Shown here one piece after another: positions 6,137 through 60,415 of a DNA stretch of 64,000 nt. The first letter of the stretch is position 1; each line of letters begins with the position of its first letter. The stretch is taken from positions 56,095 through 120,094 of the forward strand of contig DAOUFR010000013.1 in the NCBI GenBank assembly GCA_034429715.1, given 5' to 3'. The position numbers and the translations under genes are program-made. The notes below the pieces were generated by a model, which was not told the origin of the DNA, did not search any database, and saw only the letters and a program-made list of their open reading frames with translations. This stretch comes from Dehalococcoidia bacterium (GTDB lineage Bacteria; Chloroflexota; Dehalococcoidia; GIF9; UBA5629).

Positions 6137-6166
6137 GCGCTGCGCTCAGTCTACCCTCAACTACGC

Positions 6167-7762: not shown

Positions 7763-7779
7763 AGCCGTGGCCGCCTGCT

Positions 7780-8089: not shown

Positions 8090-10375
8090 CTATTTTAGCA
8101 CGTTAAGCAGTCCGCGTAATAAAATGACAGCCGCTTTTTTATCCAGGGGCTCGTTGTTATTCCCGCACTTGGGCGACTGTATGCAGGCCGGGCAGCCCTC
8201 TCGGCAGGGACATTCCTCAATAGTCTTGAGCGTCGCAGCCCACAGGCCCTCGATGATTTCATAGCCTTTCTCCGCTATACCTATTCCGCCCGGGTAGCCG
8301 TCGTAAATAAAAATCTGCGCTTTTCCGGTATCTACATGAAAGGGTGTGGAGACCCCCCCGATATCATTGCGGTCGCACATGGCGAACAGCGGCAGTATAG
8401 CGATTGCGGCATGCTCCACCGCATGAAGCCCGCCATGAAAATCGAGCTTGTTCTTTTCTATGACATCCATCGCCTGCTGCGGCAGATCGAACCACAACGA
8501 CTGGGTGATGAAACGCATGGGCGGCAGATCCAATACCTCTTCGCCGATAACCTCGTCGGTGTAATGCTTTTTCTTGCGAAAGCCTTCGACCTGGTTGGTC
8601 ACGTCCACCATGCCAAGCCGGATTTTCACGCCTCCGGACTCCTTATCCTTCATCTGCTGAAGTATCTTTATGTCGGTCAACTCCATGGTCTGCGTGTAAT
8701 AAGGGACTGCGGCCGGCTCAACCAGGGCAATATGCTTCTCGATATCAAGCTCCTTGACGAAATAGGAATCGCCCTGGTGCAGGTAGATGGCGCCGGGATG
8801 CACCTGCCAGAAGGCATGGTCCTCCTCGATCGTCTCCAGTACCTGAAAGCCTCTGGAGGCATCCAGTAGCTGATACTGATCGGAAGAGGCGGTCCTGATA
8901 TTCACATCCTGCGCCGGATGTGACAGCCGGGGTGAGATATGCCAGCGGTCGCCCTCCTTTCTCAGCTTACCCTCTTCGCTCAGCTCGGCTCCGGCTGCAT
9001 CGAGCGCATCACCGAAATATTCCCTGTCTTTTTCGTCAATGTGTTTCTCCCAGGCGGCGCACAGCAAGTGCGGGTGAAGAATGTTTATGTTCTCCCAGTT
9101 GATGAGGGCATTCTCAAAGGGTTTACCGAAGAAGAAATCGGGATTATGCATGAAATACTGGTCCAGCGGATTATTCTGCGCCACGAGAAAGGTGATCGAC
9201 TTCTCGCCCCTCCGCCCGCTTCGCCCGGCCTGCTGCCAGGTGCTGGCGATGCTGCCCGGGTAGCCGGTCAATACCGTGGCATCCAGCCCGCCGATGTCGA
9301 TTCCCAGTTCAAGGGCGCTGGTGGCCACCGCCCCCAGCAGCTCGCCCGAGAACAGTTCTCTTTCAATCTCACGCCGGTCGGCGGCCAGGTAGCCGGCTCT
9401 GTACGGCTTAATCTTTTCACCCAGGGGGCTGCCCAGCTGGTCTCGGCTGTACACATAGATCAGCTCTGTTAACCGGCGCGTGGAGGCAAAGGCAAGGGTA
9501 CGCACCTGCCTGCGCACAAGCTCTGTGAACAGCTGGGTTACCTCGCTGTTGGCGCTGCGCCGCAGGCTGCGTGCCTCATCGACGATGGGAGGGTTCCAAA
9601 ATACGAACGCCTTGCCTCCGTAAGGAGCTCCATCATTATCCACGACTTCAAACGGCAGGCCCGCCAGTCCTTCAGCATGTTGCCCCGGGTTGGCAATCGT
9701 TGCTGAACAGAACACAAATTGTGGCCTGCTGCCGTAATGAGCACATATACGTCTCAATCTGCGCAGGACGCAGGCCACGTGCGATCCGAACACTCCCCGG
9801 TATATATGCGCCTCATCGACCACCACATATTTGAGACGCCTGAAGAACTTGTCCCACGATTTATGGTTCGGCAGGATGCCGGCGTGCAGCATATCCGGGT
9901 TGGTGAGCACAATACGTGCTCTTTTCCTGATGCCCGAACGGTCTTCGCCGGGCGTATCCCCATCGTAAGTGGCGCATTCCCAGGGCAGATTAATGGCGCC
10001 GCCGGCCAGCCAGGTAAGTCCGCGCAACTGGTCCTGGGCCAGAGCTTTGGTGGGGAAAAGGTAGAGGGCGCGGGCATAAGGCTCCTCCAGCATAGTATTC
10101 AATACCGGTATGTTGTAGCAGAGGGTCTTGCCGCTGGCGCTGGGCGTTGCGACCATTACATTTTTTCCCAGTCTGATGCTGTTAATGGCCTCAGCCTGGT
10201 GTGAATAGAGAGTGTTCAGCTCGAGCTTGTCGAGCCGTCCCTGTAGAACAGTGTGAAAGGGCCTGTCAGGCCACCCGGGGCGCGCGTCGCGCGGTGGTAT
10301 ATATTGAACATGAACGATCTGGTCTTTGTACTCGGGGTCGTTCTTGAGGTAATCGAGGAACGCGGAGGTATCCAT
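8090..10375 (-). CDS. DEAD/DEAH-box helicase of the YprA/MrfA family with a C-terminal DUF1998 (MrfA Zn-binding) domain
   Basis: Walker A ATPSASGKTL, DEAH box VVVDEAH, helicase C motifs, and C-terminal 4-Cys CPCREGCPAC...CG characteristic of DUF1998. Confidence 0.85.
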   Translation of the reverse strand: MDTSAFLDYLKNDPEYKDQIVHVQYIPPRDARPGWPDRPFHTVLQGRLDKLELNTLYSHQAEAINSIRLGKNVMVATPSASGKTLCYNIPVLNTMLEEPYARALYLFPTKALAQDQLRGLTWLAGGAINLPWECATYDGDTPGEDRSGIRKRARIVLTNPDMLHAGILPNHKSWDKFFRRLKYVVVDEAHIYRGVFGSHVACVLRRLRRICAHYGSRPQFVFCSATIANPGQHAEGLAGLPFEVVDNDGAPYGGKAFVFWNPPIVDEARSLRRSANSEVTQLFTELVRRQVRTLAFASTRRLTELIYVYSRDQLGSPLGEKIKPYRAGYLAADRREIERELFSGELLGAVATSALELGIDIGGLDATVLTGYPGSIASTWQQAGRSGRRGEKSITFLVAQNNPLDQYFMHNPDFFFGKPFENALINWENINILHPHLLCAAWEKHIDEKDREYFGDALDAAGAELSEEGKLRKEGDRWHISPRLSHPAQDVNIRTASSDQYQLLDASRGFQVLETIEEDHAFWQVHPGAIYLHQGDSYFVKELDIEKHIALVEPAAVPYYTQTMELTDIKILQQMKDKESGGVKIRLGMVDVTNQVEGFRKKKHYTDEVIGEEVLDLPPMRFITQSLWFDLPQQAMDVIEKNKLDFHGGLHAVEHAAIAILPLFAMCDRNDIGGVSTPFHVDTGKAQIFIYDGYPGGIGIAEKGYEIIEGLWAATLKTIEECPCREGCPACIQSPKCGNNNEPLDKKAAVILLRGLLNVLK

Positions 10376-10410
10376 ATGTCAATTATACTGCCCTGGATTA
10401 AAAACCAGAT

Positions 10411-10695
10411 TCAGTAGGTTTCGATCTCTTTCTCCACGATCTCAACCGAAGGATAATCGTGTTCGATCAGGCTGATGGCCGCGCTGATGACCTCGTCAAC
10501 GCGGTTGTTATGGTTGGATACGCAGGCTAATCCGATCGTGGTCATCTGCCAAAGGTCATGGTCATCGACCTCGGCGATGGAGATGTTGAACTGCTTCTGC
10601 AGGCGCATTACAAGGGACTTAACGATGCTCCTTTTATCCTTGAGAGACCTGCTCCCCGGGATATGGATCTTTAATTTGCAGACGCCTACATTCAC
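10411..10695 (-). CDS. DUF503 (YlxP-like) family protein
   Basis: About 94 aa with the HIPGSRSLKDKRS motif typical of DUF503. Confidence 0.65.
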   Translation of the reverse strand: MNVGVCKLKIHIPGSRSLKDKRSIVKSLVMRLQKQFNISIAEVDDHDLWQMTTIGLACVSNHNNRVDEVISAAISLIEHDYPSVEIVEKEIETY

Positions 10696-15724: not shown

Positions 15725-16981
15725 TTATTTGGCGTCCTTCAGAAGCGCGATAAGCTCGTCCGGCCGCATCTCCTGTTGTTCGCCCGTCTCCATGTTGCGC
15801 ACCATCGTGGTGCCGGCCTTCATTTCATCGCCCCCGATGATGGCCGCGTACCTGACACCGGCGGTATTGGCATTTCTGAGCTGGGCCTTGAGACTGCGCT
15901 CGCCCGAAGAGGTCAACAGCGAGATGCCTTCGCCGCGCAGCGCCGCCGATAACTTCACAGCTTCCACCCTGGCCTCCTCTCCCAGACAGGCGATATAAAC
16001 CGCCGGCCTATCTCCTGGGGGTACCTTAATATTCTGCGTTTTCAAGTTCAGTACTATGCGCTCCAGCCCGGCGGCAAAACCTATGCCCGGCACAGGCTTA
16101 CCCCCTATCATGGCGATCAAATCATCGTAACGGCCCCCGCCGCCCAGCGCGCTCTGCGATCCGCCATCGGCAGGCTGAATCTCAAATACAGTTTTAGTGT
16201 AGTAATCCAGCCCTCTTACCAGCCTGTGATTCAATACGAACTTGATACCCAGGGCAGCGAGATAACTCCTCAAAGAGTCGAAGTGTTGGCCGCATTCCGG
16301 GCAGAGATAGTCGGCGCTTTTGGGGGCCAGATCGGCCGCAGACTGGCAGGCAGGCTTCTTGCAATCCAGCAGCCTCAAAGGATTCTTCTCAAGCCTGACT
16401 CGGCAGTCGTCACACAGCTGTTCTCTCAGCGGAGCGTAGTGTTCCTTCAATTTCTGCAAATGGCCCGGGCGGCACTTTTTACAGCCGATGCTGTTTAACT
16501 GCAGCGAGAAGTCCGTCAGTCCCAGCGACCCGAAGAAGCTGAGCGCCATATGGATTACTTCTGCATCCAGCACGGGAGATTGTTCCCCGATGGCCTCGCA
16601 GCCGAACTGGTGGTGCTGCCGGTAACGCCCCGCCTGGGGCCTCTCGTATCGAAAGATATCGGCGAAATAGAACAGCTTTACAGGCTGAGGGAGGTTATCC
16701 ATGCCATGCTCCAGATAAGCACGGCAAACGGGCGCAGTGCCCTCCGGTCGGAGGGCCATTTCGTTATCGCTGCGGTCCTTGAAGATATACATCTCCTTGC
16801 TAACGATATCCGTGCCCTCTCCCACGCTGCGCAGGAAAAGGCCTGCCTCCTCAAAAGCCGGGGTGCTGATGCGGCTGTACCCGTACAGGCGGCAAATCTC
16901 CAGAGCCCTGTCTTCGATATAGCTCCAGTAGGGCTGTTCCTCCGGTAAAGTATCGGCTGTGCCTCGCGGTGCTTTAAACAA
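15725..16981 (-). CDS. hisS: histidine--tRNA ligase
   Basis: Class II aaRS HisRS motifs (FKAPRGTAD, GGRYD) and an anticodon-binding C-terminal domain. Confidence 0.9.
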   Translation of the reverse strand: MFKAPRGTADTLPEEQPYWSYIEDRALEICRLYGYSRISTPAFEEAGLFLRSVGEGTDIVSKEMYIFKDRSDNEMALRPEGTAPVCRAYLEHGMDNLPQPVKLFYFADIFRYERPQAGRYRQHHQFGCEAIGEQSPVLDAEVIHMALSFFGSLGLTDFSLQLNSIGCKKCRPGHLQKLKEHYAPLREQLCDDCRVRLEKNPLRLLDCKKPACQSAADLAPKSADYLCPECGQHFDSLRSYLAALGIKFVLNHRLVRGLDYYTKTVFEIQPADGGSQSALGGGGRYDDLIAMIGGKPVPGIGFAAGLERIVLNLKTQNIKVPPGDRPAVYIACLGEEARVEAVKLSAALRGEGISLLTSSGERSLKAQLRNANTAGVRYAAIIGGDEMKAGTTMVRNMETGEQQEMRPDELIALLKDAK

Positions 16982-31269: not shown

Positions 31270-31524
31270 TTAAGCCTTTTGAGAGGTTTCGGCCGCTACG
31301 GGAAGCATCCTTTCGAGCAGGCGCTGCAACGTCATGATGTGAACACACTGGCCCCACTGAGAGAAGAAATGGCAGTTGCAGTTCCAATTACCATCGCTGA
31401 ATGACAGGACATGGCTGTCATTTTCGCCGCGGAAATCGGCTGAGAAATTGTGGATGGTTACTCGCTCGGGCTCCTCTGCATAGCGTTTGGCTTTTTCGAT
31501 CTTGCCGGCGAGACTGGGTTGCAT
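31270..31524 (-). CDS. small SWIM zinc-finger-like protein
   Basis: CNCHFFSQWGQCVH fits the SWIM C-x-C-x(n)-C-x-H pattern. Confidence 0.45.
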   Translation of the reverse strand: MQPSLAGKIEKAKRYAEEPERVTIHNFSADFRGENDSHVLSFSDGNWNCNCHFFSQWGQCVHIMTLQRLLERMLPVAAETSQKA

Positions 31525-31689
31525 CGGTTACCTCCGCCAAAAGTATATAACGGCCGGTATTAAAAGTCTATCTTAATATAATAGTCGTTATGTCAACAAA
31601 TTGCGTCTCCGCTGACATTCAGCCAGGGCTCCGCCTTGTTTACACCCTATCTAAGGTTATCTGCTAAAATTGAATATCCAAGATAGACT

Positions 31690-33048
31690 ATGCAGGACAA
31701 ATTGTTTTCCGTTATCCGCAAGCTCAAAGCTGATTACGTCGAGGTCCGCCTTGATGAGAGCCAATCGAGCCGTCTGGTCTTCCGGGGCGAGCGCCTGGAA
31801 GAGGCGGGCAGGACGGCCGGCGCGGGCGGATGCGTGCGCGCGCTGGTGAAAGGAGGATGGGGCTTTGCCAGCTTTAACAGTCCGGGCAGGATGGAGGAGA
31901 GCGCTGCCCTGGCGGTGGAGCAGGCTGCCCGTGTGGGAAAAGGAAAGAGCGAGTTCAGCCCCGCCCGGGCCGTCGTCGATAAGGTTGACGCCGAGTATAA
32001 GAAGAATCCTCTGGCAGTCCCCCTCTCGGCCAAGAAGTCCCTGCTGGATGAGTATAACCGCATCATGCTTGAAACACCGGACATCCAGACTACCAGCATC
32101 GGTTACGGTGATATCAGAAAAAAGGTAATTTTCGCCAGCTCCGACGGCTCTTATATCGAGCAAAGCCGCATAGACTTGAACCTGCGCCTGTCGGCCATCG
32201 CCAGCCGCAACGGCGACGTCCAGCAGGTCGGCCTGAGTATAGGCAGCAAGGGTGATTTCTCAACCGTGGAAGGCCTGCAAGAGAAGGTGCGGGGCATCGC
32301 CCGGCGGGCCGCAGCCATGCTCTCCGCTCCCGAGGTCAAAGGGGGAACCTACACCGTGGTCCTTGACCCGGTGCTGGCGGGCGTATTCGTTCATGAGGCA
32401 TTCGGCCATCTCTCAGAAGCAGATCATATCTATGAGAATCCCCAGATGCGGGAGATAATGGTTCTGGGACGCAGGTTCGGCGGACAACATCTCAATATCG
32501 TGGACGGCGCGGCCTTGCCGGGCCTGCGCGGCAGCTACAGGTATGACGACGAAGGGACGCCGGCCGGCAAGACTTATTTGATCAAAGAAGGGGTGCTCAA
32601 CAGCCGGCTTCATTCCCGTGAGACGGCCGCCAAAATGGGGGAGAAACCCACCGGCAACGCACGGGCTATTAATTATGCTTATCCACCCATAGTGCGTATG
32701 ACCAATACCTATATCGAGCCGGGATCCACCACGTTCGACGAGATGATTGGCGGGATCAAGGAGGGCGTTTACGCCAGGGACTGGTACGGCGGCACAACCA
32801 GCCTCGAGATGTTCACTTTCTCTGCCGGTGAAGCCTACATGATCAGGGATGGTAAGATCGCTGAGATGATCAGACCGGTGGTCCTGAGCGGCAACGTCTT
32901 CACAACGCTGCACAATATAGATGCGATCGGCAACGACCTTGATATGAACCAGGGCGGCGGCTGCGGAAAAGCCGGCCAATCGCCGCTGCCCGTCTCCAAC
33001 GGCAGCCCTCACATAAGAATTCAGAACTGCCTGGTGGGGGGCAAATAA
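31690..33048 (+). CDS. tldD: metalloprotease TldD
   Basis: TldD/PmbA-family fold with the conserved HExxxH-like region (HEAFGHLSEADH) and a Gly-rich C-terminus. Confidence 0.85.
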   Translation: MQDKLFSVIRKLKADYVEVRLDESQSSRLVFRGERLEEAGRTAGAGGCVRALVKGGWGFASFNSPGRMEESAALAVEQAARVGKGKSEFSPARAVVDKVDAEYKKNPLAVPLSAKKSLLDEYNRIMLETPDIQTTSIGYGDIRKKVIFASSDGSYIEQSRIDLNLRLSAIASRNGDVQQVGLSIGSKGDFSTVEGLQEKVRGIARRAAAMLSAPEVKGGTYTVVLDPVLAGVFVHEAFGHLSEADHIYENPQMREIMVLGRRFGGQHLNIVDGAALPGLRGSYRYDDEGTPAGKTYLIKEGVLNSRLHSRETAAKMGEKPTGNARAINYAYPPIVRMTNTYIEPGSTTFDEMIGGIKEGVYARDWYGGTTSLEMFTFSAGEAYMIRDGKIAEMIRPVVLSGNVFTTLHNIDAIGNDLDMNQGGGCGKAGQSPLPVSNGSPHIRIQNCLVGGK

Positions 33049-33049
33049 A

Positions 33050-34348
33050 ATGGAAGAGATACTTGAGATCGCCCGCAGGTCTGCAGACAGCGCCGAGGTC
33101 TGCCGCGTAACATCCATCAGGACTCCGGTCCAGTTCGAGGCCAACCGCCTCAAGCAGATCCAGACCAAGGAATCGGTCTCCGTCGCCCTTCGCCTGATCA
33201 AGAACGGTAAAATGGGCTTCGCCCAGGCCAGCGGTGATATCGCTCCCGCCGACCTGGTTGACATGGCACTCGAGACCAGCCAGTTCGGCTACCCGGTGGA
33301 CTTCGACTTCCCCGTACTCGGGCCTTTTGAAGAAGTCGCCGTCTACGATCCGCAGGTCGAACGTGTCGGAATCAATAGTCTGATCAGCCTCGGCCAGGCC
33401 GTCGTCGACGCCGTGTGTGCCAATACGCCCGGTATACTCTGCGAGGGAAGTATATCGCGCGGTATGTCCACCTTCGAAATCGCTGTCAGCGGAGGCGGGC
33501 GCGCATCATGCAAGCGCAGCAATTTCAGTATCAGCATGGACGGTATGCTGGTCAGGGACGGGGACATTCTGTATGTCGGCGACATACGCAGCTCCTGCCG
33601 TCCCATCACCGACCCTGAGCCGGTTGCGGGCGAGATCATCAGGCAGCTCGACCTGGCCAGGAACAATGCTTCCATCAAGTCGGGCGGCATGCCGGTGATT
33701 TTCACGCCTTTCGGCGTGGCAGGCTCGCTTCTGGCCCCGCTCATATCCGCCTTTAACGGCAAGACCGTGCTGGACGGCGCCTCGCCCATCAAAGATAAAA
33801 AGGGCGCGGTTATATTCGACAGCAGACTATGCTTATCTGATGATCCCACCATACCCTACCAGCCGGGAAGCACACCTTTCGATGACGAGGGGATGCCGGC
33901 AAGGCGCAACGCTCTGATAGACCACGGGAAGGTGGTCCAATTCTATTATGACCTGCATACGGCGGCGCTGGCCGGATCATCGAGCACGGGCAATGGCGGC
34001 CGCAACGGTGGAATGCCCGCCCCGGCGGTCCACGCGCTGGTGATCGAAGGCGGTAAGATATCCCTGGCTGATATGGTCAAAGATATGAAAGAAGGTCTGA
34101 TCATCGAGCAGATGATGGGCGCCGAACAGGGAAACATACTCAACGGGGATTTCAGCGGCAATGTGCTGCTGGGTTACAAGGTTGAGGAAGGGGAAATCAC
34201 CGGCAGGGTCAAGGACACCATGGTCTCCGGCAACGTATATCAGCTATTGAAAGAGGTCCTGGCCATGGGCAGCGACAGCCGCTGGATAGCCGGCTACGTG
34301 AATACACCAAGCATCTACTGCCCCTCTATCTCCGTTGCAGCGAAATAA
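33050..34348 (+). CDS. pmbA: TldE/PmbA-family protease partner
   Basis: TldD/PmbA family member lacking the metal-binding motif. Start is 2 nt after the tldD stop. Confidence 0.8.
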   Translation: MEEILEIARRSADSAEVCRVTSIRTPVQFEANRLKQIQTKESVSVALRLIKNGKMGFAQASGDIAPADLVDMALETSQFGYPVDFDFPVLGPFEEVAVYDPQVERVGINSLISLGQAVVDAVCANTPGILCEGSISRGMSTFEIAVSGGGRASCKRSNFSISMDGMLVRDGDILYVGDIRSSCRPITDPEPVAGEIIRQLDLARNNASIKSGGMPVIFTPFGVAGSLLAPLISAFNGKTVLDGASPIKDKKGAVIFDSRLCLSDDPTIPYQPGSTPFDDEGMPARRNALIDHGKVVQFYYDLHTAALAGSSSTGNGGRNGGMPAPAVHALVIEGGKISLADMVKDMKEGLIIEQMMGAEQGNILNGDFSGNVLLGYKVEEGEITGRVKDTMVSGNVYQLLKEVLAMGSDSRWIAGYVNTPSIYCPSISVAAK

Positions 34349-34353
34349 AAGAA

Positions 34354-35169
34354 ATGAAGAAACTGGTCAATTTTCGCAAGGAACCGCGGCCGCACGCCTG
34401 CGACATGGTGGCGGCATGGCCGGGCATCGGCAACCTGTCCCTTATCGTAACGCGCTACCTGAGGGAGAAGCTGGGCGCAGAGGAGATAGGGGAGATCGAG
34501 CCCTTCACCTTCTTCGACCCCATCGGCGTGATGGTTAAAGACAACATCGTCGAAACTCCGCAGTTCCCCGAAGGCAAGTTCTTCTACTGGCATAATGCAT
34601 CCGGCAAAAAGGACATCCTCTTTTTCATCAGCGACGAGCAGCCGGCCTACAAAGGTTACGACCTGGCAAACTTTATTCTCGATATAGCCAAGAAATTCAA
34701 GGTCCAGCGTATCTACACATTTGCAGCCGCCATCGCCAAGATCCACCATACTGAGCAGCCCAAGGTATGGGGCGTGGCCACCGACGCGTCGCTGGTCGCC
34801 TACCTCAAGAAGTTTGACGTCGTGCTGCGCGGCCGCCTTCAGATCGCCGGATTGAACGGCCTGCTGCTGGGGGTTGCCAGGGAGCGCTCCATGGAAGGCA
34901 TCTGCCTCCTGGGGGAGGTCCCCTCTTACACCACGCGAATACCCAATCCCAAGGCTTCGCTGGCCGTATTGAAGGTGCTGCTTCAGGTGCTGGAAGTCGA
35001 GATCGATCTCAGCGAGCTGGCCAAAATCGCCGAGGAGTCGGACCAGCAGATGAAACGGCTGGCTGCGCAGGCGATGGGTGAATATATAGACCGCTACACG
35101 CGTCCGGTATGGCCGCCCCCGGAGGACGAGGGCGAATTCGAGGACGAAGAGGAAGAGGAGGAGGAATGA
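34354..35169 (+). CDS. PAC2-family (proteasome-assembly-chaperone-2-like) protein with an acidic Glu-rich C-terminal tail
   Basis: PAC2/DUF75-like fold length and motifs. C-terminus EDEGEFEDEEEEEEE. Start is 6 nt after the tldE stop. Confidence 0.55.
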   Translation: MKKLVNFRKEPRPHACDMVAAWPGIGNLSLIVTRYLREKLGAEEIGEIEPFTFFDPIGVMVKDNIVETPQFPEGKFFYWHNASGKKDILFFISDEQPAYKGYDLANFILDIAKKFKVQRIYTFAAAIAKIHHTEQPKVWGVATDASLVAYLKKFDVVLRGRLQIAGLNGLLLGVARERSMEGICLLGEVPSYTTRIPNPKASLAVLKVLLQVLEVEIDLSELAKIAEESDQQMKRLAAQAMGEYIDRYTRPVWPPPEDEGEFEDEEEEEEE

Positions 35170-36098
35170 GTGAATCACAGCCACCGCTGAGTGAAATCAT
35201 CGCGAAAACACTGTATTCGAATGATGAGATCAGTCACTCCGACCTGGTCCGGCTATCTGATTTGAGTGATGACGACCTGTCGCAATATAAGAGGGCCTGG
35301 AACAGCGCCCACCTGGAAAGGCGCGCGCTGATCATATCTAAACTATGTAGCCTGGGCGAGGACGACGCCAGGCTGGATTTCACACGCATATTTAAGTTTT
35401 GCCTCGATGATGTCGATGCCGGTATACGTATCAAAGCGCTGGAGGGTCTGGAGCTGGAAGACAAATACAATTTCGCACTACCTGTAATCAAAACGCTCAA
35501 GATGGATGAGTCGCCGGAGGTAAAGGAAGCCGCCGCCCGGGTGATGGGCAAATTCGCACTCATGGCTGAGCTGGGGGAGCTTCCTTCGGCTGTGGGTGAC
35601 GATATATTCGATGCCCTGCTCGGCGTGCTGGAGAATCCTTCCGAACCCGATTCGTTGCGAAGGCGGGCGCTGGAGTCCATCTCACCCTTCCGGCAGGAAC
35701 TCGTGGCAAGCTACATTGAGGACTTTTACTTCAGCGAGAACCCGGCGCTCAAGACCAGCGCCATATTCGCCATGGGTCGCAACTGCGATCCCCGCTGGCT
35801 GGATTACCTGAATAAAGAGCTGCAGGATAGCAACGCACGGTTTCGATTCGAGGCGGCACGGGCCTGTGGCGAGATAGAAGAAGAGGATACCGTCCCCGGC
35901 CTTCTGAATTTATTAAACGACAACGATCACGAGGTGCAGGAAGCCGCCATCGCAGCCCTGGGCAAAATCGGCGGCCAAAAGGCCAGGGACGCCCTAAACA
36001 AATTGAAAACATCACCTGAAAACAGGATTAAAGAAGCGGCCATGTCCGCGCTGACAGAGCTTGAGATTTGCCAGGATCCACTATCTTCGAGTTCCTGA
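35166..36098 (+). CDS. HEAT/PBS-lyase repeat protein
   Basis: GGAGGA Shine-Dalgarno before the ATG at 35166, which overlaps the PAC2 stop. Repeated HEAT-like units (VRIKALEGL, VKEAAARVMG, EVQEAAIAALGKIG). Confidence 0.6.
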   Translation: MSESQPPLSEIIAKTLYSNDEISHSDLVRLSDLSDDDLSQYKRAWNSAHLERRALIISKLCSLGEDDARLDFTRIFKFCLDDVDAGIRIKALEGLELEDKYNFALPVIKTLKMDESPEVKEAAARVMGKFALMAELGELPSAVGDDIFDALLGVLENPSEPDSLRRRALESISPFRQELVASYIEDFYFSENPALKTSAIFAMGRNCDPRWLDYLNKELQDSNARFRFEAARACGEIEEEDTVPGLLNLLNDNDHEVQEAAIAALGKIGGQKARDALNKLKTSPENRIKEAAMSALTELEICQDPLSSSS

Positions 36099-36628
36099 AA
36101 CGGCAATCTGTGCTTGCAGGGGACAAAGTCCGGCTGCGTCCCCGCCGGCTGGATGACGCCGCAGCCGAGTACAGATGGCGTATGGATGAAGAGCTGTGCC
36201 GCTTGGACGCCACTGAACTACTCACATGTAGCTACGAAGAATTCCATTTGAAATACAGCGCTGAACTGGAGTTCCCCGGCCTGACCCACACCCTCGCCAT
36301 CGATACACTGGACCCCATCCATATAGGAAGCTGCAGCCTTTTCAATTTTAACCTGGCGGGAAACACGGCCGAAATTGGGATAATGTTGGGCGATAAGACG
36401 TACTGGGGGCGCGGTTACGGGGAAGACGCATTGAACACCTTTATGCTCGACATTTTCGAGGTCTCCGGCCTGCAGAGCCTGATCCTGCGTACGCTTGACT
36501 GGAACGTGCGCGCCCGGACCTGCTTCGAGAAATGCGGCTTCGTGCCACGCGGAGATATAGTGCGAGGGGAGCACCGTTTCGTAATCATGCAGGCGGAGCG
36601 GGGAGCGGTGCTGAACAAAGGTCAGTGA
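36068..36628 (+). CDS. GNAT-family N-acetyltransferase (RimJ/RimL-like)
   Basis: GNAT acetyl-CoA binding core (WGRGYGEDAL). The true start may be the GTG at 36110 or the ATG at 36179. Confidence 0.7.
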   Translation: MPGSTIFEFLKRQSVLAGDKVRLRPRRLDDAAAEYRWRMDEELCRLDATELLTCSYEEFHLKYSAELEFPGLTHTLAIDTLDPIHIGSCSLFNFNLAGNTAEIGIMLGDKTYWGRGYGEDALNTFMLDIFEVSGLQSLILRTLDWNVRARTCFEKCGFVPRGDIVRGEHRFVIMQAERGAVLNKGQ

Positions 36629-38104: not shown

Positions 38105-38788
38105 GTGAGGAGAATTTTTGGAACCCTCGTTGCAATCGTAGTGGCTTTATCTTTAGTTTTGATACCGGCCACTGTCTCAGCCGACCTCGGCAAATGCACG
38201 GGTTGGGACAAAGTTAAATGGGAAAACAACCAGAATTCCTGGAAGCTATACCTCCAGCACTGGGGAAGGACGCCCACGAGCGCCATGTCCCGACTTGCTG
38301 GTTTATGCGGCCCGGATAAGCTTTGTTCCGGCGTGTGCAACACTTCCCAATGTCCGAAGCCCACGGGCTGCGACATCGCTGAATGCCTGGGTGGATGCAG
38401 CAACTGCAATACACAGGCGGGAACTCTTGGATCTGCATGTGACGATTCCAAGAAATGTCTCAACCCCGAGACCAAGCCCACCTCTCTACCTCTGGATGAC
38501 TGCCCGCTCAATTGCCCGGCCAATGCCACCACCGCAGGCCTCGGCACTTCCAAGTGCTCCGGCTGCTGGGGCAAGAGCCTGTCCTATGCCAACAAGAGCT
38601 GGGCTGCCGCCGATGTCGGCACGAGGGCCAACATCAATAACAGCCACATGAACCACAGGGGCACATCTCCCATCGGTGGCGGTGACTGGGGTATCACCGG
38701 TTGCCCGCATCCCGAGTGTGTGTCTCTCACCTGGTGCCTGCAGAACAACCTTCTGGCCAAGTGCAAGGTCTGCAGCAGCGGCAAATAA
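38105..38788 (+). CDS. secreted cysteine-rich protein (227 aa, about 26 Cys), unknown family
   Basis: N-terminal signal peptide (LVAIVVALSLVLIPATVSA). Many CxxC, CxC and CSxC spacings. Own strong promoter, Shine-Dalgarno and terminator. Confidence 0.7.
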   Translation: MRRIFGTLVAIVVALSLVLIPATVSADLGKCTGWDKVKWENNQNSWKLYLQHWGRTPTSAMSRLAGLCGPDKLCSGVCNTSQCPKPTGCDIAECLGGCSNCNTQAGTLGSACDDSKKCLNPETKPTSLPLDDCPLNCPANATTAGLGTSKCSGCWGKSLSYANKSWAAADVGTRANINNSHMNHRGTSPIGGGDWGITGCPHPECVSLTWCLQNNLLAKCKVCSSGK

Positions 38789-50301: not shown

Positions 50302-51498
50302 TCACATGACTACTTTATCATGACGCAGATCAGCCATTTTCTTACTATTGTAACCAAGCTCTTTTAATATTTCGGCGGTGTGTTCACCCAGAAACGGCCC
50401 GAAACTTCTTACTCCGCCCGGTGTATCAGAGAGTTTAATAGGCAGACCCACCTGCTTTACCTTTCCCTCAGTCGGATGGTCGAGTTCAAGCATCATCTTG
50501 CGGTGCGCGATCTGAGGATCGGAAAAAACCTCACCAAGCTGATAAACAGGAGCAATACATATATCTTTGCTTTTCAAGAAATCAAACCATTCATCTCTGG
50601 TTTTTGTCAGAAAAATACGTTGGAAACAATCTCTTATCGCTTCCCTTTCCTGTCCGCCAGCAAATTGCTTCGGTATGAAATCCTCTTTGCCTAAAGACCT
50701 GCAAAGGTTCTCCCAGAATTTTGGTTCAAAGCACCCCAAAGTGATATAACCGTCATCTTTAGTTCTATAAACAGTAGCCCAGGGAAAGACGCCGCTAAAC
50801 ATGGTATTCCCCCTTCCGGGTTCGTCTCCCGTCATAAAATAATCAGAGATGAAGCGAACCAATAACGAAACAACTCCATCGGTCATCGATATATCCAGGT
50901 ATTGTCCCCTGCCGGATTTTTGCGCTGCTATTAAAGCCAGCAGAATACCGACAGTCGCCATTAAGCCACCACCTGCGTAATCAGCCAGTAAATTCAAAGG
51001 TAATACGGGGGCTTCACCCGAATTGCCGATCAGGCCTAATGCACCTGCAATCGCGATGTAATTTGGATCATGTCCGGGCAATCCAGCATAAGGCCCGGTC
51101 TGACCATAGCCGCTGATTGAACAGTAGATCATCCTTGGATTGATCCGGCGAATATTCTCATAATCTATGCGGAGACGTTTGACCACACCGGGTCTGAATC
51201 CATCTACGATTACATCTGCTTTACAGGCAAGTTGCATAAAAATGGCGTGTCCCTGCTCTGTTTTAAGATCGATCGCTATACTTTTCTTGTTTCGCAGCAG
51301 CGCCGTAAATGCAGTTGCCGCCCTTCCACTTTCTCCCTTCAGGGGAGATACACCAGATCCAAAGATCGGTTCGTCTTGTCCCCTCGGCTGTTCAACCTTT
51401 ATCACTTCCGCGCCCATATCTGCAAGCATCATCGTACAGTAGGCATGCGGTGCAACACGGCTCAAATCTAAAACTCGTATGCCATCTAATGGGCCCAT
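50302..51498 (-). CDS. family III CoA-transferase (CaiB/BaiF family)
   Basis: N-terminus GPLDGIRVLDLSRVAPHAYC. Conserved catalytic Asp region of CaiB/BaiF. Confidence 0.85.
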   Translation of the reverse strand: MGPLDGIRVLDLSRVAPHAYCTMMLADMGAEVIKVEQPRGQDEPIFGSGVSPLKGESGRAATAFTALLRNKKSIAIDLKTEQGHAIFMQLACKADVIVDGFRPGVVKRLRIDYENIRRINPRMIYCSISGYGQTGPYAGLPGHDPNYIAIAGALGLIGNSGEAPVLPLNLLADYAGGGLMATVGILLALIAAQKSGRGQYLDISMTDGVVSLLVRFISDYFMTGDEPGRGNTMFSGVFPWATVYRTKDDGYITLGCFEPKFWENLCRSLGKEDFIPKQFAGGQEREAIRDCFQRIFLTKTRDEWFDFLKSKDICIAPVYQLGEVFSDPQIAHRKMMLELDHPTEGKVKQVGLPIKLSDTPGGVRSFGPFLGEHTAEILKELGYNSKKMADLRHDKVVM

Positions 51499-51652
51499 TC
51501 AGGTACCTCCATCTAAATATCGATCGGTTATCAAGCTGTTCACCATTCCATCGGGCGGCTCAAAGGGAGGCGCGGGCAATTGACCCGCCTCCTGCATGTT
51601 ATGTCGACTGCCACAATAAATACCGTGGCTCAGGCTATTTCAAAGGCTTATC

Positions 51653-52945
51653 TCACCTGGTCTCAAAAACAATCTGGACTTTCTCAACTTTATCCACATC
51701 TTTCTTATAGAAAAACGACCCTGCGAAAAAGAGGACACCGGCAACTATGAGCAACACAGGCATTCCCTGCAATGCTTTATCCAGGCCGTATACATCAGAT
51801 AAAGCTCCGATAACGAGGGGGCCAAGAGCACTGCCCAGCAGGCATTGAATAACTATGTTAACGCTGTGCGAGGTGGACCTGAGGCCGGGGTGGACGACGT
51901 CCTGTGTAACGGCTATAGCACCCGGGGCATACATTATAACCAGTAATCCGAAGCCAAGAAGTATGCTGAACTGAAGGCTCCCGTGAAAGAGAAAGGCGAT
52001 GAACAGCAATATTGCCGCCAGGGTACAACTGATGGCGGGAACAAGCATTCTGGCATTGGATTTCCGTTTAAGCCACTGATCGGTGAGAAAGCCGCTCAAC
52101 GGGGCGCCTACAATTGCCAGCAACATAACCACACTGGCCATCAAACCCGAGCGTTCGATGCTCATCCCCTCGAATCTCTGAAAATATGAAGGCAGCCAGG
52201 TCGTCATGGCCGTAGTAGTAAATCCACATGCAGCAAATGCCAGGTTGTTAAAGACCAGCGACTTGCTGCGGAACAGCTCTTTGACAACATCGAGTTTGCT
52301 CATTTTTACTTTGCTTGATGATTCATCCGCGGTCACAGACTTTTCGAGTGCAATTGTTTTATAATCCTTCACCCAGAAAAACAAGATAGCAATGATAATC
52401 CCGGGAATTGCCACAATGCCCAGTGCATGCCTCCACCCCAGCGCAACAGCAATTACACCACCTACTGTAACTCCCACAGCCATCCCCAGCGGGATGGCAG
52501 ATTGCCATATCCCTATCATCCTGGCACGCTTTTCCGGCTTGAAAATTGCAGAGATCATCGCAGCGCCACCCGGTGAATACCCGGCTTCGCCAACCCCAAC
52601 GACACAACGTGTGGCAAAGAGTTGCGCGAAGTTCGTGGTAAACGCACCGGCTGCCGTCGCCAAACCCCATATAATTGACATTAAACCGATGCTCTTTTTT
52701 CGGCTCCAACGATCCACCAGAGCACCAACAGGCAAGGTGAATACCACGAGAGACCAGAAAACCGCTGATATCATCAGCCCGCATTGAACATCAGTTAAAC
52801 CCCAGTCGCTCTTAAGAAACGGGAATAGTGATATGATGACAAACCTGTCGATGTAATCAAACATGAAGAGCAGATATAAGAGAATATAGGCATACCATGC
52901 TCTCCACCGCGGGTAAGTTACAGCTGCTTCCGTGCTCTGGTTCAT
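51653..52945 (-). CDS. MFS transporter
   Basis: 12 predicted TM helices. MFS loop motif (GALVDRWSRKK). Confidence 0.8.
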   Translation of the reverse strand: MNQSTEAAVTYPRWRAWYAYILLYLLFMFDYIDRFVIISLFPFLKSDWGLTDVQCGLMISAVFWSLVVFTLPVGALVDRWSRKKSIGLMSIIWGLATAAGAFTTNFAQLFATRCVVGVGEAGYSPGGAAMISAIFKPEKRARMIGIWQSAIPLGMAVGVTVGGVIAVALGWRHALGIVAIPGIIIAILFFWVKDYKTIALEKSVTADESSSKVKMSKLDVVKELFRSKSLVFNNLAFAACGFTTTAMTTWLPSYFQRFEGMSIERSGLMASVVMLLAIVGAPLSGFLTDQWLKRKSNARMLVPAISCTLAAILLFIAFLFHGSLQFSILLGFGLLVIMYAPGAIAVTQDVVHPGLRSTSHSVNIVIQCLLGSALGPLVIGALSDVYGLDKALQGMPVLLIVAGVLFFAGSFFYKKDVDKVEKVQIVFETR

Positions 52946-52985
52946 TTAAAACTACCTCCCCTCGCTTTTTATTTCATATGGGCCG

Positions 52986-54221
52986 TTATTGCACAACGCC
53001 GTCGTTTATTAACGAAGCAAAATCTTCACCAGATAAATTGAGAATTTTGGTGCAGACGAATTCGTTGTCCTCACCTAAAAGCGGCGCTCGTCCTGCTGCA
53101 TATGGTGTTGCGGACAGTTTAACCGGCCAACCTTGCACTATGTACTGTCCCAGTGTCGGATGGTCGACGGATGAATAATAGCCTCGATGCTTCAGCTGGG
53201 AATCCTTATATACTAAATCCTCTCCTCGTTTGACAACACCCGCTGCTATGCCTGCCTTCTGCAATTTACGTACCAGCTCTTCCGGTGAATAGCCAGATGT
53301 CCATGCCCCTATCAGCTCATCCAGTTTATCCTCATTGTCTTTCCTGCCAGACAGGGTAGAGAACTCAGGCTTACCAGTCCAGCCGGGATTACCCATCAGC
53401 CGGCATAAGGTGTCCCAGTCCACGTCTGTGGAAATAGATATAACACACCATCTGTCCTCACCTTTGCATCGATATACATTATTGGGGCAGGCATAAGATG
53501 ATCTGTTACCACATCTGATCTCTTCATGCCGGTTAACTGCATAATCAAGAATTGTGGGGGATATGCTGTGAAGAGTGGCCTCGAGCTGAGATATGTCAAT
53601 ATATTGGCCTTTACCTGTACGCTGCCGGTAGTCCAGAGCTGCCATTATGGCACACAGAGAAATCACGGGAGTAACAACGTCCGGATACACATCCGGAGGT
53701 GCGGTGGGTTCTCTGTCCTCCCAACCTGTAATGTGATAAAGCCCCGTTGCACCGGCTGCGTGTATGCCCCAGCCCTTAAAGGAAGAAAGAGGACCGGTTT
53801 GCCCCTGGTTACTTATGCTTACCAGGATGACATCGCTTTTAACTTTTTTAAGTTCGTTATAGTCCAATCCCCATCTTTCCATGCCGCCCGGACCGAAGTT
53901 CTCAATGACCACGTCACTCCACGCGACAAGCATCTTGGCAACTTCTATTCCGCGAGGGTGACCGAGATTGAGCGTCAGGCTGCGTTTACCATTGTTGAAT
54001 ACAGGGAATGCTATCGAGTGATCAAGGTCGACTTTGTCATCTTTATATGGCGAGCTTAACCGGCATAAATCAGGATGGATCCTGGATTCTAACTTTATCA
54101 CCTGTGCTCCAAAATCAGCCAGGTATGCGCCGCATATTGGTCCGGCCACCACCCATGTGAAATCAAGTACTTTCAATCCCTGCAGAGCATACATCTTTCG
54201 CACCTCGTTCAAATAATGCAA
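52986..54221 (-). CDS. family III CoA-transferase (CaiB/BaiF family)
   Basis: LQGLKVLDFTWVVAGP N-terminus and CaiB/BaiF fold. Confidence 0.85.
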   Translation of the reverse strand: MHYLNEVRKMYALQGLKVLDFTWVVAGPICGAYLADFGAQVIKLESRIHPDLCRLSSPYKDDKVDLDHSIAFPVFNNGKRSLTLNLGHPRGIEVAKMLVAWSDVVIENFGPGGMERWGLDYNELKKVKSDVILVSISNQGQTGPLSSFKGWGIHAAGATGLYHITGWEDREPTAPPDVYPDVVTPVISLCAIMAALDYRQRTGKGQYIDISQLEATLHSISPTILDYAVNRHEEIRCGNRSSYACPNNVYRCKGEDRWCVISISTDVDWDTLCRLMGNPGWTGKPEFSTLSGRKDNEDKLDELIGAWTSGYSPEELVRKLQKAGIAAGVVKRGEDLVYKDSQLKHRGYYSSVDHPTLGQYIVQGWPVKLSATPYAAGRAPLLGEDNEFVCTKILNLSGEDFASLINDGVVQ

Positions 54222-55465
54222 TCCTGCTTCAACTTTCCAAGCTCCTGCGATGAAAGTCCTATCTCCTTTCCAAGAATTTCAGCATTATGTTCACCGATAA
54301 GCGGAGCCCGGCGGTGCATTGCACAAGAGGTCTCGTTAGAAATGAAGATGAAAGCCGGATAAGGGATAGGACTGTCTAATTCAGGATGCTCCAAATACCT
54401 CCAGTATCCTCTGGACCGAAAATGTGAACTCTCATATACATCTTTAGGAGAATATACCTTTAGAATTCGCAGGCCTCTTTTAAGCGCCTCATTTTGGATT
54501 TCGTCCTTTGTAAAGTGATTGAAGAAATCCTGGATGATGCTATTCCAGGAGTCGACTTCCGACTGTGATATCTTCGACATGTCGATCGATGCCCAATCGA
54601 CTTCTTTCAAGATACCCGCTTCTCCCTGTTCATCAATCCATTTCACCAGGGCAGTCCACTCCTGCGCACCCCATATGCCACCCATAAATCGCCAGAGTAC
54701 ATAACCGTCTTTACATTTCCAGACGTCTCGCTGATAAGCATTGCCTCGCAATATGATATTGCCTCTTCTGGTTTCGGATATCCCCCTTCCCGCAATCCAC
54801 GGCAGAATGCTATAGCCAAAACGCAGGACAGCCTCCTGGATTGAGACATCCACATGCTGCCCTTGCCCCGTCGCCTTACGATAGTAATGAGCAATCAGTG
54901 CTCCTGCAGTCGCATGTATGCCAGCAAGGAAATAAGATTGGTCACCTCCCATTCGCAGGGGAGGTCTGTCGGCATCGCCCGTTATATACATCAGCCCCCC
55001 TTCCGCCATACAAACAATATCCGATCCCCTGCGATCCTTATACGGACCTGTCTGCCCAAAAGGAGTAATCGATATCATTATCAGCCCGGGATTCAGTTTA
55101 CTCAGCGTACTATAGCCCAGTCTCAGTGAATCCAGATATCCCGGGGTGTAAGTCTCCAGCAAGAAATCAGCCTTTCCAACCAAATCTTTGAAAATGTTTT
55201 TGCCGGCCGCGGTCTCAATATCAAGCGTAATGCCTCGCTTGTTAGCATTGTAAGCAAACCAGTGAAGGCTCTTCTCCGGGTCCTGAATATTGTGGTAAAA
55301 CGGCCCGATTCTCCGGCTGGCATCTCCTCCGGGCCTTTCCACTTTGATGACATCCGCTCCTAAATCCGCCAGTAATTTGCCGCAGATAAAACCTGTTTCA
55401 TCTGCTAAGTCTAAAACACGGTATGGATCTAACGGCGCGCTGTGATCCTCACCTTTATCTACCAT
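54209..55465 (-). CDS. family III CoA-transferase (CaiB/BaiF family)
   Basis: YRVLDLADETGFICGKLLADLGADVIKVE N-terminus. Stop overlaps the next CoA-transferase start. Confidence 0.85.
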   Translation of the reverse strand: MVDKGEDHSAPLDPYRVLDLADETGFICGKLLADLGADVIKVERPGGDASRRIGPFYHNIQDPEKSLHWFAYNANKRGITLDIETAAGKNIFKDLVGKADFLLETYTPGYLDSLRLGYSTLSKLNPGLIMISITPFGQTGPYKDRRGSDIVCMAEGGLMYITGDADRPPLRMGGDQSYFLAGIHATAGALIAHYYRKATGQGQHVDVSIQEAVLRFGYSILPWIAGRGISETRRGNIILRGNAYQRDVWKCKDGYVLWRFMGGIWGAQEWTALVKWIDEQGEAGILKEVDWASIDMSKISQSEVDSWNSIIQDFFNHFTKDEIQNEALKRGLRILKVYSPKDVYESSHFRSRGYWRYLEHPELDSPIPYPAFIFISNETSCAMHRRAPLIGEHNAEILGKEIGLSSQELGKLKQDCII

Positions 55466-55517
55466 TGATTAATCTCCTGCCATTAGAGCATTAAATAAAT
55501 ACCTGGAACACCCTGCT

Positions 55518-56681
55518 TTATTTCCTTTGGTCAAATCTTCGATGCAGCAGGAGAGAGGCCAGAGTGATTTTCTGAATCTCAATCGTACCGCCGGCGACAC
55601 CCCAGCCCCAGGCGTCGCGCATCAGCCGCTCTACAGGATAATCCGTGGAATAGCCGTATCCGCCGTGTACCTGTAAGGCCATTCCGGTGACCTCTCTCAC
55701 CATTTGATTGGCAAAGCACTTGGCCAGATTGGCCTCAAGCGGAGCAGGCAATCCTGCTGCCGCGTTGACCGTAGCTTTGTAAATAAGAAGACGGGCGGCC
55801 TCCACTTTAAGCGCCATATCCGCCAGCATGAACTGGATTGCCTGGAATTCGCAGATTTCCTTTCCCCACTGCTTCCTTTGCAGCGAATAGGCCATTGCTT
55901 CCTCAAGCGCACCCTGGGCTATGCCCAGGCACATAGTCGCGTTGCCGCATCGCTCAAGATCAAAGGCGACCATTAACTTTCTGAATTCACCCTCCTTAAC
56001 TATGAGATTCTCTTTTGGAACCCGGCAATTTTCGAAAATCAGGTCGCAACTCGGGGCGCCCCTCATACCCATGAACTGCTCCTGTTTACCAAAGAGGAAA
56101 CCCGGGGACCCTTTATCGATGATTAAGCCGCCTATACCTTTAGCCCCTTTCTGTTCGCCGAGTCTGATATAGACAACGTAAACATCGGCTTCCCCTCCGC
56201 CGCTGATAAAGCGTTTTGTTCCATTCACAATATAGAAATTGCCGTCCGGCACTGCTTTAGTCCTGAGATCGGTCAATGCCGAACCGGCTTCAGGTTCAGT
56301 CATTGCAGCAGCAATCCACAGTGTTCCCTCGCATACGGGTCTAACATACTTATCCTTCTGTTCTTCCGTGCCGAACAGTTCAATGATCCTCACCGGTCCT
56401 ACACTGGATTCGAAGATGGGCGCAGCACATATGCACGATACCCGTGCAAACTCTTCAATAGCTAAAATAGCCTCAAAAGCAGTTCGCCCCTGTCCCCCAT
56501 ATTTTGTAGAGATGGGTAATCCCAGCAACCCCAGATCTGCCAGCTTCTTGAAATACTCGTGGCGGGGCATATGCTCGGCTTTTGAATCCCATTCTGCAAC
56601 TTTCGGTCGGAACTCCTTTTCAACGACATCGTGCGCCAGCTTCTTGATCATTTTCTGCTCTTCGTTTAGCTCAAATTCCAT
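55518..56681 (-). CDS. acyl-CoA dehydrogenase
   Basis: ACAD N-terminal alpha, middle beta and C-terminal alpha domains. Catalytic Glu region near the C-terminus (YGYSTDYPVERLMRDA). Confidence 0.85.
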   Translation of the reverse strand: MEFELNEEQKMIKKLAHDVVEKEFRPKVAEWDSKAEHMPRHEYFKKLADLGLLGLPISTKYGGQGRTAFEAILAIEEFARVSCICAAPIFESSVGPVRIIELFGTEEQKDKYVRPVCEGTLWIAAAMTEPEAGSALTDLRTKAVPDGNFYIVNGTKRFISGGGEADVYVVYIRLGEQKGAKGIGGLIIDKGSPGFLFGKQEQFMGMRGAPSCDLIFENCRVPKENLIVKEGEFRKLMVAFDLERCGNATMCLGIAQGALEEAMAYSLQRKQWGKEICEFQAIQFMLADMALKVEAARLLIYKATVNAAAGLPAPLEANLAKCFANQMVREVTGMALQVHGGYGYSTDYPVERLMRDAWGWGVAGGTIEIQKITLASLLLHRRFDQRK

Positions 56682-57246: not shown

Positions 57247-57335
57247 GGAGGGGTGACCGAGTGGACGATGGTGACGGTCTTGAAAACCGTTTTAGCTTCG
57301 TGCTAACGCGGGTTCGAATCCCGCCCCCTCCGCCA
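57247..57335 (+). tRNA. tRNA-Ser (anticodon UGA), type II with long variable arm, CCA encoded
   Basis: Acceptor stem GGAGGGG/CCCCTCC. Anticodon loop CUUGAAA. Long variable arm. T-arm GCGGGTTCGAATCCCGC. 3' GCCA. Confidence 0.85.
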
Positions 57336-60368: not shown

Positions 60369-60415
60369 TACCTGTCACGCGGCAGCCCCTGGAAATCTGC
60401 AGATGGGGACAGTCC

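Follow-up and report, generated by a model that had tools for sequence, protein, structure and literature searches.

What does a chambered metalloprotease do in one operon with a relative of proteasome activators, in a bacterial lineage that reportedly has no proteasome? This question is raised by a five-gene block at positions 31690-36628 of a 64,000-nucleotide (nt) stretch of Dehalococcoidia DNA (contig DAOUFR010000013.1; this whole stretch is referred to as the window), which encodes the two subunits of a TldD/E metalloprotease, a PAC2-family protein, a HEAT-repeat protein and a GNAT acetyltransferase. The housekeeping role of the near-universal TldD/E is unexplained beyond microcin B17 and CcdA processing, and the existence of PAC2 homologues in bacteria without a proteasome represents a second loose end that is joined to the first by this operon. 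Based on the tight coupling of the five genes and their retention in related genomes as a unit that outlasts the surrounding synteny, we tentatively interpret the block as a Dehalococcoidia-specific, co-transcribed and translationally coupled operon that would encode a module for processing proteins or peptides independently of a proteasome, centred on TldD/E.

Results

Five open reading frames (ORFs) on the + strand fill positions 31690-36628 and were assigned to TldD, TldE, PAC2, HEAT and GNAT using Pfam and NCBIfam. The gene identities and positions proposed in the original prediction, which was made from the letters alone, are borne out by the Pfam matches of all five ORFs:

31690..33048, + strand: TldD, catalytic subunit of the TldD/E metalloprotease, 452 amino acids (aa); Pfam PmbA_TldD domains 1-3
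33050..34348, + strand: TldE/PmbA, non-catalytic partner subunit, 432 aa; Pfam PmbA_TldD_3rd, 217 bits
34354..35169, + strand: PAC2-family protein, PbaB-like, 271 aa; Pfam PAC2 (PF09754), 142 bits (cutoff 25.8)
35122..35166, + strand: acidic C-terminal tail of the PAC2 protein, EDEGEFEDEEEEEEE; last codons (35155-35165) GAGGAGGAGGA
35166..36098, + strand: HEAT/PBS-lyase-type repeat protein, 310 aa, isoelectric point 4.6; HEAT_2, 104 bits, and HEAT_PBS, 44 bits
36068..36628, + strand: GNAT acetyltransferase, 186 aa from TTG 36068 (172 aa from GTG 36110); Acetyltransf_3, 65 bits

Read off the sequence, the stop codon of tldD is separated from the start codon of tldE by a single nucleotide (TAA-a-ATG) and the tldE stop codon from the PAC2 start codon by 5 nt (TAA-aagaa-ATG). 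The PAC2 and HEAT genes share an ATGA overlap (-4), immediately preceded by the Shine-Dalgarno-like run GAGGAGGAGGA within the poly-Glu codons, so that the last Glu codons of the PAC2 gene also provide the HEAT gene with its ribosome-binding site. In case of the HEAT/GNAT junction, a start at TTG 36068 results in a 31-nt overlap and a start at GTG 36110 in an 11-nt gap. Of 72 related loci, 51 have a start codon (TTG, ATG or GTG) at the position of TTG 36068, with the 14 codons downstream of it staying open, whereas only 14 have one at the position of GTG 36110; conservation of the TTG may partly stem from conserved (F/I)-Cys codons of the overlapping HEAT frame. Judged from this codon comparison, TTG 36068 and hence the 31-nt overlap is most likely, with the 11-nt gap as the alternative. 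The first three spacings of the original prediction (2, 6 and -4) were thus essentially right, being read here as 1, 5 and -4 nt, while its 12-80 bp for the HEAT-GNAT junction is probably wrong.

The operon-like tight packing that had also been predicted holds within the window and beyond it. The median same-strand gap in the window is ca. 50 nt, and 10 of 34 such gaps (ca. 29%) measure 15 nt or less, according to a crude gene call; the block junctions are tighter than these gaps generally, at an overall coding share of 88%. Relatives show median gaps of 0 nt for TldD-TldE, 5 nt for TldE-PAC2 and 0 nt for PAC2-HEAT, the latter not exceeding 30 nt in 78 of 79 loci, and their HEAT-GNAT junction spans -61 to +76 nt. 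Upstream of the block, only one sizeable non-coding gap is found, which is presumed to be the promoter region of the operon:

31525..31689, no strand: intergenic region, 165 nt, AT-rich, between a divergent small ORF and tldD

No sigma-70 consensus site was detected on the + strand of this region, and the promoter consensus scan yielded 9 promoter-like sites compared with 4.3±2.1 expected, with the reservation in both cases that the promoter type of this lineage is perhaps not covered. The same kind of scan returned no promoter-like site between the block genes and terminator-like sites at chance level; it thus reveals no obvious decoupling signal and is otherwise uninformative. No RNA element was found in or near the block by Rfam and tRNA scans. 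PADLOC defence models gave no match for four of the five block proteins and only generic HEAT-repeat matches for the HEAT protein.

Conservation of the block was analyzed in two independent samplings. A species-level scan (one genome per species) seeded with a PAC2 alignment yielded 336 loci, the best 80 of which (L002-L081) were used; their PAC2 identity is 57-98% and all are Dehalococcoidia or Chloroflexota metagenome-assembled genomes (MAGs). In nearly all of these 80 genome loci, the order and strand TldD-TldE-PAC2-HEAT-GNAT are kept, as determined by tblastn with the window proteins. The second sampling consisted of 80 JGI metagenome loci anchored on the HEAT protein. For the retention counts, only loci with enough flank were taken as testable, and the upstream genes for FolC and a divergent 84-aa ORF (orf84) as well as the downstream convergent genes speE and speH served as flanking genes (given as present/testable):

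Genome loci, block genes: TldD 68/69, TldE 73/73 (one a remnant only), HEAT 75/76, GNAT 69/70
Genome loci, flanking genes: FolC 45/56, orf84 40/65, SpeE 40/63, SpeH 36/60
Metagenome loci, block genes: PAC2 49/51, TldE 43/44, TldD 35/36, GNAT 62/63
Metagenome loci, flanking genes: SpeE 20/48, FolC 13/25

Retention in both samplings is 96-100% for block genes and 42-80% for flanking genes, and the block thus stays intact in well over a hundred genomes and metagenome contigs of Dehalococcoidia. Further, three diverged PAC2 subfamilies (ca. 45-48% identity; L083, L085 and L086) bear the same block amid unrelated neighbours: in L083 an ABC transporter lies upstream and an aminotransferase downstream, and the neighbours in L085 and L086 are likewise unrelated to those in the window. 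Better retention than the flanks, together with the unrelated flanks of these subfamilies, indicates that the block is a unit that outlasts general synteny. In L134 and L171, where PAC2 is absent (L171 also lacks GNAT), TldD-TldE-HEAT is kept with a gap of 24-28 nt, and this closeness of TldE and HEAT points to downstream genes being tied directly to TldD/E. Conservation of the gene order across the class therefore extends beyond tldD-tldE; an order confined to that pair would have spoken against the original prediction. No linkage to TldD/E, HEAT or GNAT was seen for any sampled PAC2 relative from outside the Dehalococcoidia and, as far as sampled, the association seems to have arisen within the Dehalococcoidia.

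The two protease subunits both match PF01523, PF19290 and PF19289, with the C-terminal domain of TldD reaching 209 bits in Pfam. In searches against the PDB, TldD matched E. coli TldD (5nj5_A, E=1.4e-47) and TldE matched 6j6a (E=3e-35) and E. coli PmbA (5nj5_B, E=7e-19). TldD scored 273 bits against the archaeal model NF040952 (cutoff 635) and 170 bits against the E. coli-type model NF008006 (cutoff 513), and is thus a family member that is an equivalog of neither. Its motifs HEAFGHLSEAD (at residue 235) and GGCGK (at residue 423) correspond to residues described for E. coli TldD, namely both His metal ligands, the tethering Glu/Asp residues and Cys-x-Lys. Both are kept in 67/67 TldD orthologues, and no HExxxH is present in any of 70/70 TldE orthologues. 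E. coli TldD/E is a hollow heterodimeric metalloprotease whose narrow channel lets in only unfolded chains, starting with the N-terminus, and which trims them processively (Ghilarov et al. 2017, PMC5810440). By homology, the window proteins are expected to form a hollow heterodimer of this type that would take up unfolded chains N-terminus first. The two systems are alike in having two paralogous PmbA_TldD-fold subunits with HExxxH, ExD and a distal Cys-x-Lys in TldD only. However, they are distant (E=1e-47) and the window TldD scores higher against the archaeal TldD model. The window genes are also adjacent to each other and followed by three further coupled genes, whereas the paper on the E. 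coli protease describes no accessory factors (PMC5810440).

For the PAC2 family profile, the best match in the PDB was PbaB from P. furiosus (3vr0, E=1e-27). An AlphaFold model of the window protein (mean predicted local distance difference test score, pLDDT, of 77.5) likewise gave PbaB as the best Foldseek match, with TM-scores of 0.73-0.74 (per model) and 0.79-0.80 (per target), followed by PbaA, Rv2125 and human PAC2 in 20S assembly intermediates. Scores against TIGR00162 (120 bits, cutoff 200) and TIGR00161 (73 bits, cutoff 199) did not reach either cutoff. An ATP-grasp label carried by one PAC2 relative, stemming from the naming of one source, is unsupported, the fold being PAC2/PbaB-like. 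The poly-Glu tail of the original prediction is indeed present (EDEGEFEDEEEEEEE) and was modelled as disordered (pLDDT below 50 for residues 257-271). It lies beyond the C-terminal helix and a (Y/F)TxP(V/I)W motif. In all block-linked PAC2 proteins, this conserved motif is followed by 8-45 mostly Asp/Glu residues, and none of them ends in a hydrophobic-Tyr-X (HbYX) motif.

PbaB is a homotetramer that works independently of ATP as a proteasome activator and holdase via its C-terminal segments (Kumoi et al. 2013, PMC3605417; 3vr0). In PbaB as in the window protein, a long C-terminal helix and then a flexible tail extend from the PAC2 core, and the PbaB tail bears both the holdase and the activator function. 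In contrast to PbaB, the window protein does not contain the proteasome-docking HbYX motif and belongs to a group with 8-45-residue Asp/Glu tails instead; it is also encoded in an operon with TldD/E, HEAT and GNAT, in a host lineage reportedly without 20S proteasome. Chloroflexi have been described to contain PAC variants but no proteasome, whereas proteasomes and PAC homologues are both present in actinobacteria (Fuchs et al. 2017, PMC5666114). Given that Chloroflexi reportedly lack proteasomes, the block PAC2 protein would need another partner. The actinobacterial structures Rv2125 (5un0), Rv2714 (2wam), SCO1997 (3e35) and Cgl1923 (2p90), deposited as unknown function or PAC2 homologue, share the bacterial PAC2 fold but show far weaker similarity (E 1e-13 to 1e-4).

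A 289-aa ORF antisense to the PAC2 gene (34315-35184, - strand) was treated as a non-gene, namely as the reverse reading of a conserved coding region. It exceeds the PAC2 gene in length, with the poly-Glu codons appearing backwards as Leu/Phe runs, and can mislead length-based gene calling, as happened in the crude gene call used above for the window gaps.

The HEAT_2 match of the fourth block protein falls in three stretches. Searches against the PDB returned alphaRep consensus HEAT proteins, deoxyhypusine hydroxylase and CpcE, and the scores against the NblB model (53 bits, cutoff 300) and the CpcE model (31 bits, cutoff 330) reached neither cutoff. It is a generic PBS-type repeat protein that remains below every equivalog cutoff and shares the short HEAT_PBS/HEAT_2 repeat type with NblB, CpcE and the alphaRep designs. 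NblB is a HEAT protein required for regulated phycobilisome degradation; the non-photosynthetic Dehalococcoidia are assumed to be without phycobilisomes. Deoxyhypusine hydroxylase is a HEAT-repeat di-iron enzyme with conserved His-Glu metal-binding motifs. This identity was rejected for the window protein because an alignment of 30 HEAT orthologues has no His at any invariant or 90%-conserved position; what the window protein shares with 4d4z is confined to the level of the repeats.

In case of the GNAT protein, Acetyltransf_3 was matched by 30/30 aligned orthologues and the GYG(T/A)DA acetyl-CoA-type motif is largely kept (G104 invariant; Y103, D106 and A107 at least 90%). The closest solved structures to the GNAT profile are AAC(6') (6erd, 4e-12) and SpeG (1.5e-11), with MccE (1e-4) and RimJ (9e-4) far behind. 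Bit scores were 45-49 to SpeG and AAC(6') (SpeG itself 45-47), compared with 22 to RimJ (3igr). The NCBIfam SpeG model was not matched at E<0.01 and neither was any NCBIfam equivalog. SpeG, AAC(6') and RimJ/RimL share the GNAT fold, a GYG(T/A)DA-type motif and the Acetyltransf_3 match with the window protein, but SpeG, AAC(6') and RimJ resemble it only remotely.

Discussion

Starting from the gene linkage, fold assignments and active-site motifs observed here, we infer interactions and a direction of substrate flow as follows. The PbaB-like PAC2 protein would function as an ATP-independent holdase or adaptor whose long C-terminal helix and flexible, strongly acidic tail may catch polypeptides that are unfolded and probably basic, gate the chamber of TldD/E, or do both. 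This role would parallel that of the PbaB tetramer, whose C-terminal tentacles bind unfolded proteins and open the 20S proteasome. The HEAT protein may represent a bridging scaffold, as suggested by the fact that it stays beside TldE where PAC2 has been lost, while GNAT might acetylate an amine of the substrate, the product or a partner. A dedicated processing or quality-control complex, as put forward in the original prediction, can reasonably be inferred from the comparative data since the five-gene order is conserved class-wide and outlasts the surrounding synteny. The broader notion that PAC2 proteins are general adaptors or activators of self-compartmentalising proteases, and not proteasome-specific, appears unlikely at present. 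Were it true, the TldD/E 'pencil sharpener' of the proteasome-less Dehalococcoidia would become a regulated machine for ATP-independent protein degradation through a PbaB-like protein with acidic tentacles, the HEAT scaffold and the acetyltransferase, and a physiological role would be found for both the bacterial PAC2 proteins and housekeeping TldD/E.

A number of observations weigh against such a module, and many of them would be explained by an operon of convenience, in which a promoter is shared by housekeeping TldD/E and by PAC2-HEAT-GNAT as a separate unit, or as three functions unrelated to each other, without physical cooperation, the order being inherited from the class ancestor. We regard this main alternative as possible, albeit doubtful. 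TldE/PAC2 is the loosest junction of the block, with gaps of more than 100 nt in 9 of 79 genome loci and inserted genes in L074, L075 and L085. PAC2-HEAT-GNAT occurs intact without an intact adjacent TldD/E in L040 and without TldD/E in L133, and L059 lacks HEAT. Together with L134 and L171, these variants without TldD/E, PAC2, HEAT or GNAT show that the parts of the block are separable, and the loose junction and natural variants weaken the case for one obligate complex. L040 and L133 retain the acidic tail, and so does a stand-alone PAC2 paralogue (L082, L087) that does not adjoin TldD/E; the tail is therefore not specific to a TldD/E partnership. None of nine out-of-block PAC2 relatives viewed in context adjoins TldD/E, HEAT or GNAT, and all named block-carrying loci belong to the Dehalococcoidia or Chloroflexota, so that one ancestral arrangement suffices. 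Functionally unrelated genes can share operons in compact Dehalococcoidia genomes, and the high coding share of the window and its many short same-strand gaps are in line with this. The nearest solved relatives of GNAT are small-molecule amine acetyltransferases and not protein N-terminal ones. Co-evolution did not help to discriminate: in a mirror-tree analysis (Kimura distance matrices, 31 loci, FolC and SpeE as controls), partial correlations were high, with 0.67 for TldE-PAC2 and 0.65 for TldD-TldE (positive control), but PAC2 correlated with its unrelated neighbour SpeE (raw correlation 0.94) no less strongly than with TldD, TldE or HEAT (0.88-0.92), and the test was not used for this reason. 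Mere sharing of a promoter is, on the other hand, less easily reconciled with the difference in retention between block and flanking genes in two independent samplings, with the movement of the block as a unit into differing neighbourhoods and with a TldE-HEAT adjacency that outlives the loss of PAC2.

Other explanations concern single members of the block. The GNAT protein could be a SpeG-like polyamine N-acetyltransferase that belongs with the convergent speE (spermidine synthase) and speH (AdoMet decarboxylase) genes, making the connection to proteolysis incidental; the acidic PAC2 protein and HEAT might then be polyamine-related partners. The location of GNAT directly next to these genes (7-nt stop overlap with speE), the many SpeG structures matched by its profile with E ~1e-11 alongside AAC(6'), and the weak HEAT match to deoxyhypusine hydroxylase, a spermidine-pathway enzyme, are compatible with this idea. 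We nevertheless consider it improbable, as SpeE and SpeH are kept in only 40/63 and 36/60 genome loci (SpeE in 20/48 metagenome loci) compared with 69/70 and 62/63 for GNAT with HEAT, no NCBIfam SpeG match exists, the HEAT alignment has no invariant His and thus no metal site of the His-Glu type found in deoxyhypusine hydroxylase, and speE is convergent to the block and not co-transcribed with it. Slightly less probable still is that PAC2 serves a proteasome-like protease encoded elsewhere, for instance a divergent beta-subunit homologue, with the proximity to TldD/E reflecting a general proteostasis neighbourhood. PAC2 is a family of proteasome assembly chaperones and activators, and a PF00227 protein is encoded 7 kb downstream of the block in L085. 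Yet this protein matches the beta-subunit model (bacterial or archaeal) only faintly (25 bits, cutoff 192) and has no counterpart in the 64-kb window or in the 91 other fetched loci; the block PAC2 proteins are without the HbYX docking motif, and Chloroflexi reportedly lack proteasomes (PMC5666114). A maturation cluster for peptides made by ribosomes and modified after translation (RiPPs), with TldD/E as leader peptidase and GNAT modifying the product, is disfavoured and highly improbable. TldD/E does mature microcin B17 and occurs in RiPP pathways, and peptide antibiotics are acted on by some GNATs, among them MccE, to which the match is weak here (1e-4). However, no precursor peptide gene, cyclodehydratase, radical-SAM enzyme or exporter was found within ca. 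10 kb, and the annotated genes from ca. 20 to 31.7 kb and from 36.6 to 43.6 kb are housekeeping genes except for orf84 and 38105-38788 (no Pfam match). The block is also class-wide and located in a core-genome context, and the sole conserved small ORF nearby, the divergent 84-aa one, looks zinc-binding and is missing from L083 and L085.

Full-text literature searches found no relevant paper linking TldD or PmbA with PAC2, or PAC2 chaperones with Dehalococcoidia, and Dehalococcoides combined with TldD returned only papers titled on unrelated topics. PAC homologues in proteasome-less Chloroflexi had already been noted, but not their operonic coupling to TldD/E, HEAT and GNAT. All components belong to known families and it is their combination that is the new part. 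The processing module proposed here amounts to a testable hypothesis of a chambered metalloprotease with accessory factors resembling proteasome activators. Even if this reading fails, the block remains useful as a robust synteny marker for Dehalococcoidia and warns against naming such PAC2 proteins proteasome chaperones.

Variant loci and PAC2 relatives outside the block

The genes inserted between TldE and PAC2 differ between loci. In L074, an ORF at 6160-6972 encodes a Cas4-like PD-(D/E)XK protein (27 bits), and the insert in L085 (6514-7729) consists of an HSDR_N_2 protein and two small ORFs. A DUF4177/Sp36-like small protein is included among the inserts (L074, L085 and L086 3-548). In L040 (MAG chromosome CP070642.1), the intact trio PAC2-HEAT-GNAT lies between what is left of the C-terminal parts of TldE (residues 302-432) and SpeE (residues 197-308), located at 7594-7986 and 10321-10656, with TsaD and a DUF2851 gene upstream. 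This arrangement represents either a double truncation or rearrangement, or else an assembly chimera. The PF00227 proteasome-family protein of L085 is 252 aa long and encoded at 15758-16516 (- strand).

Outside the block, stand-alone PAC2 genes are found beside acyl-CoA dehydrogenase and electron-transfer flavoprotein (ETF) beta/alpha genes in L082 (8001-11953), L087 (3775-8747) and L088 (3949-7963). This association recurs in three unrelated contigs, and the acidic tail is short in L082 and L087. In L084, a PAC2 relative adjoins a gene for a PCMT-type methyltransferase, while in L092 one stands alone with Lon 2.3 kb off. Tandem PAC2-PAC2 pairs are present in L089 (6219-7894), L090 (7001-8729, a Planctomycetes MAG) and L091 (7001-8746); such bacterial pairs of differing PAC2 genes recall the PAC1-PAC2 (Pba1-Pba2) heterodimer of eukaryotes. 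Many bacterial PAC2 proteins of greater length (ca. 320 aa; P0125, P0126 and P0135-P0270) form a large subfamily ending in the strongly conserved motif ...ELDRLGVFxxYEDRFLDLF(R/K), and other subfamilies end in ...YIG, ...VIN or ...LLN; PAC2 subfamilies are clearly defined by their C-terminal tails.

Genomic surroundings

Upstream of the block, the window encodes PyrF, PlsY, two glycosyltransferases, FolC and the divergent orf84, and downstream the convergent SpeE and SpeH followed by GreA, LysRS and SerRS. A protein identical to the window PAC2 is also encoded on a Logan contig. The small ORF next to tldD has the following features:

31270-31524, - strand: orf84, 84 aa, divergent from tldD; CxC...CxH pattern NCNCHFFSQWGQCVH; no Pfam match

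This pattern resembles a SWIM-type zinc finger. Relatives of orf84 share 43-93% identity, and the 40 of 65 loci listed above carry it at the expected upstream position. At the other end of the block, the 3' ends of GNAT and the convergent speE share 7 nt (36622-36628), leaving no room for a terminator between them; the gap from speE to speH is 0 nt.

Further away, a region of lower GC content at 50302-56681 (- strand; 46-50% compared with ca. 56%) contains genes for three paralogous family-III CoA-transferases, a major facilitator superfamily (MFS) transporter and an acyl-CoA dehydrogenase, and may be an acquired metabolic island; a tRNA-Ser(tga) gene lies at 57247-57335. Both ends of the window are unusual in composition. 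The beginning of the window (1-2000) has a GC content of 38% and two ORFs without Pfam match, and its end (60000-64000, GC 63%) encodes a 1043-aa UvrD_C/PD-(D/E)XK (AddB-like) protein.

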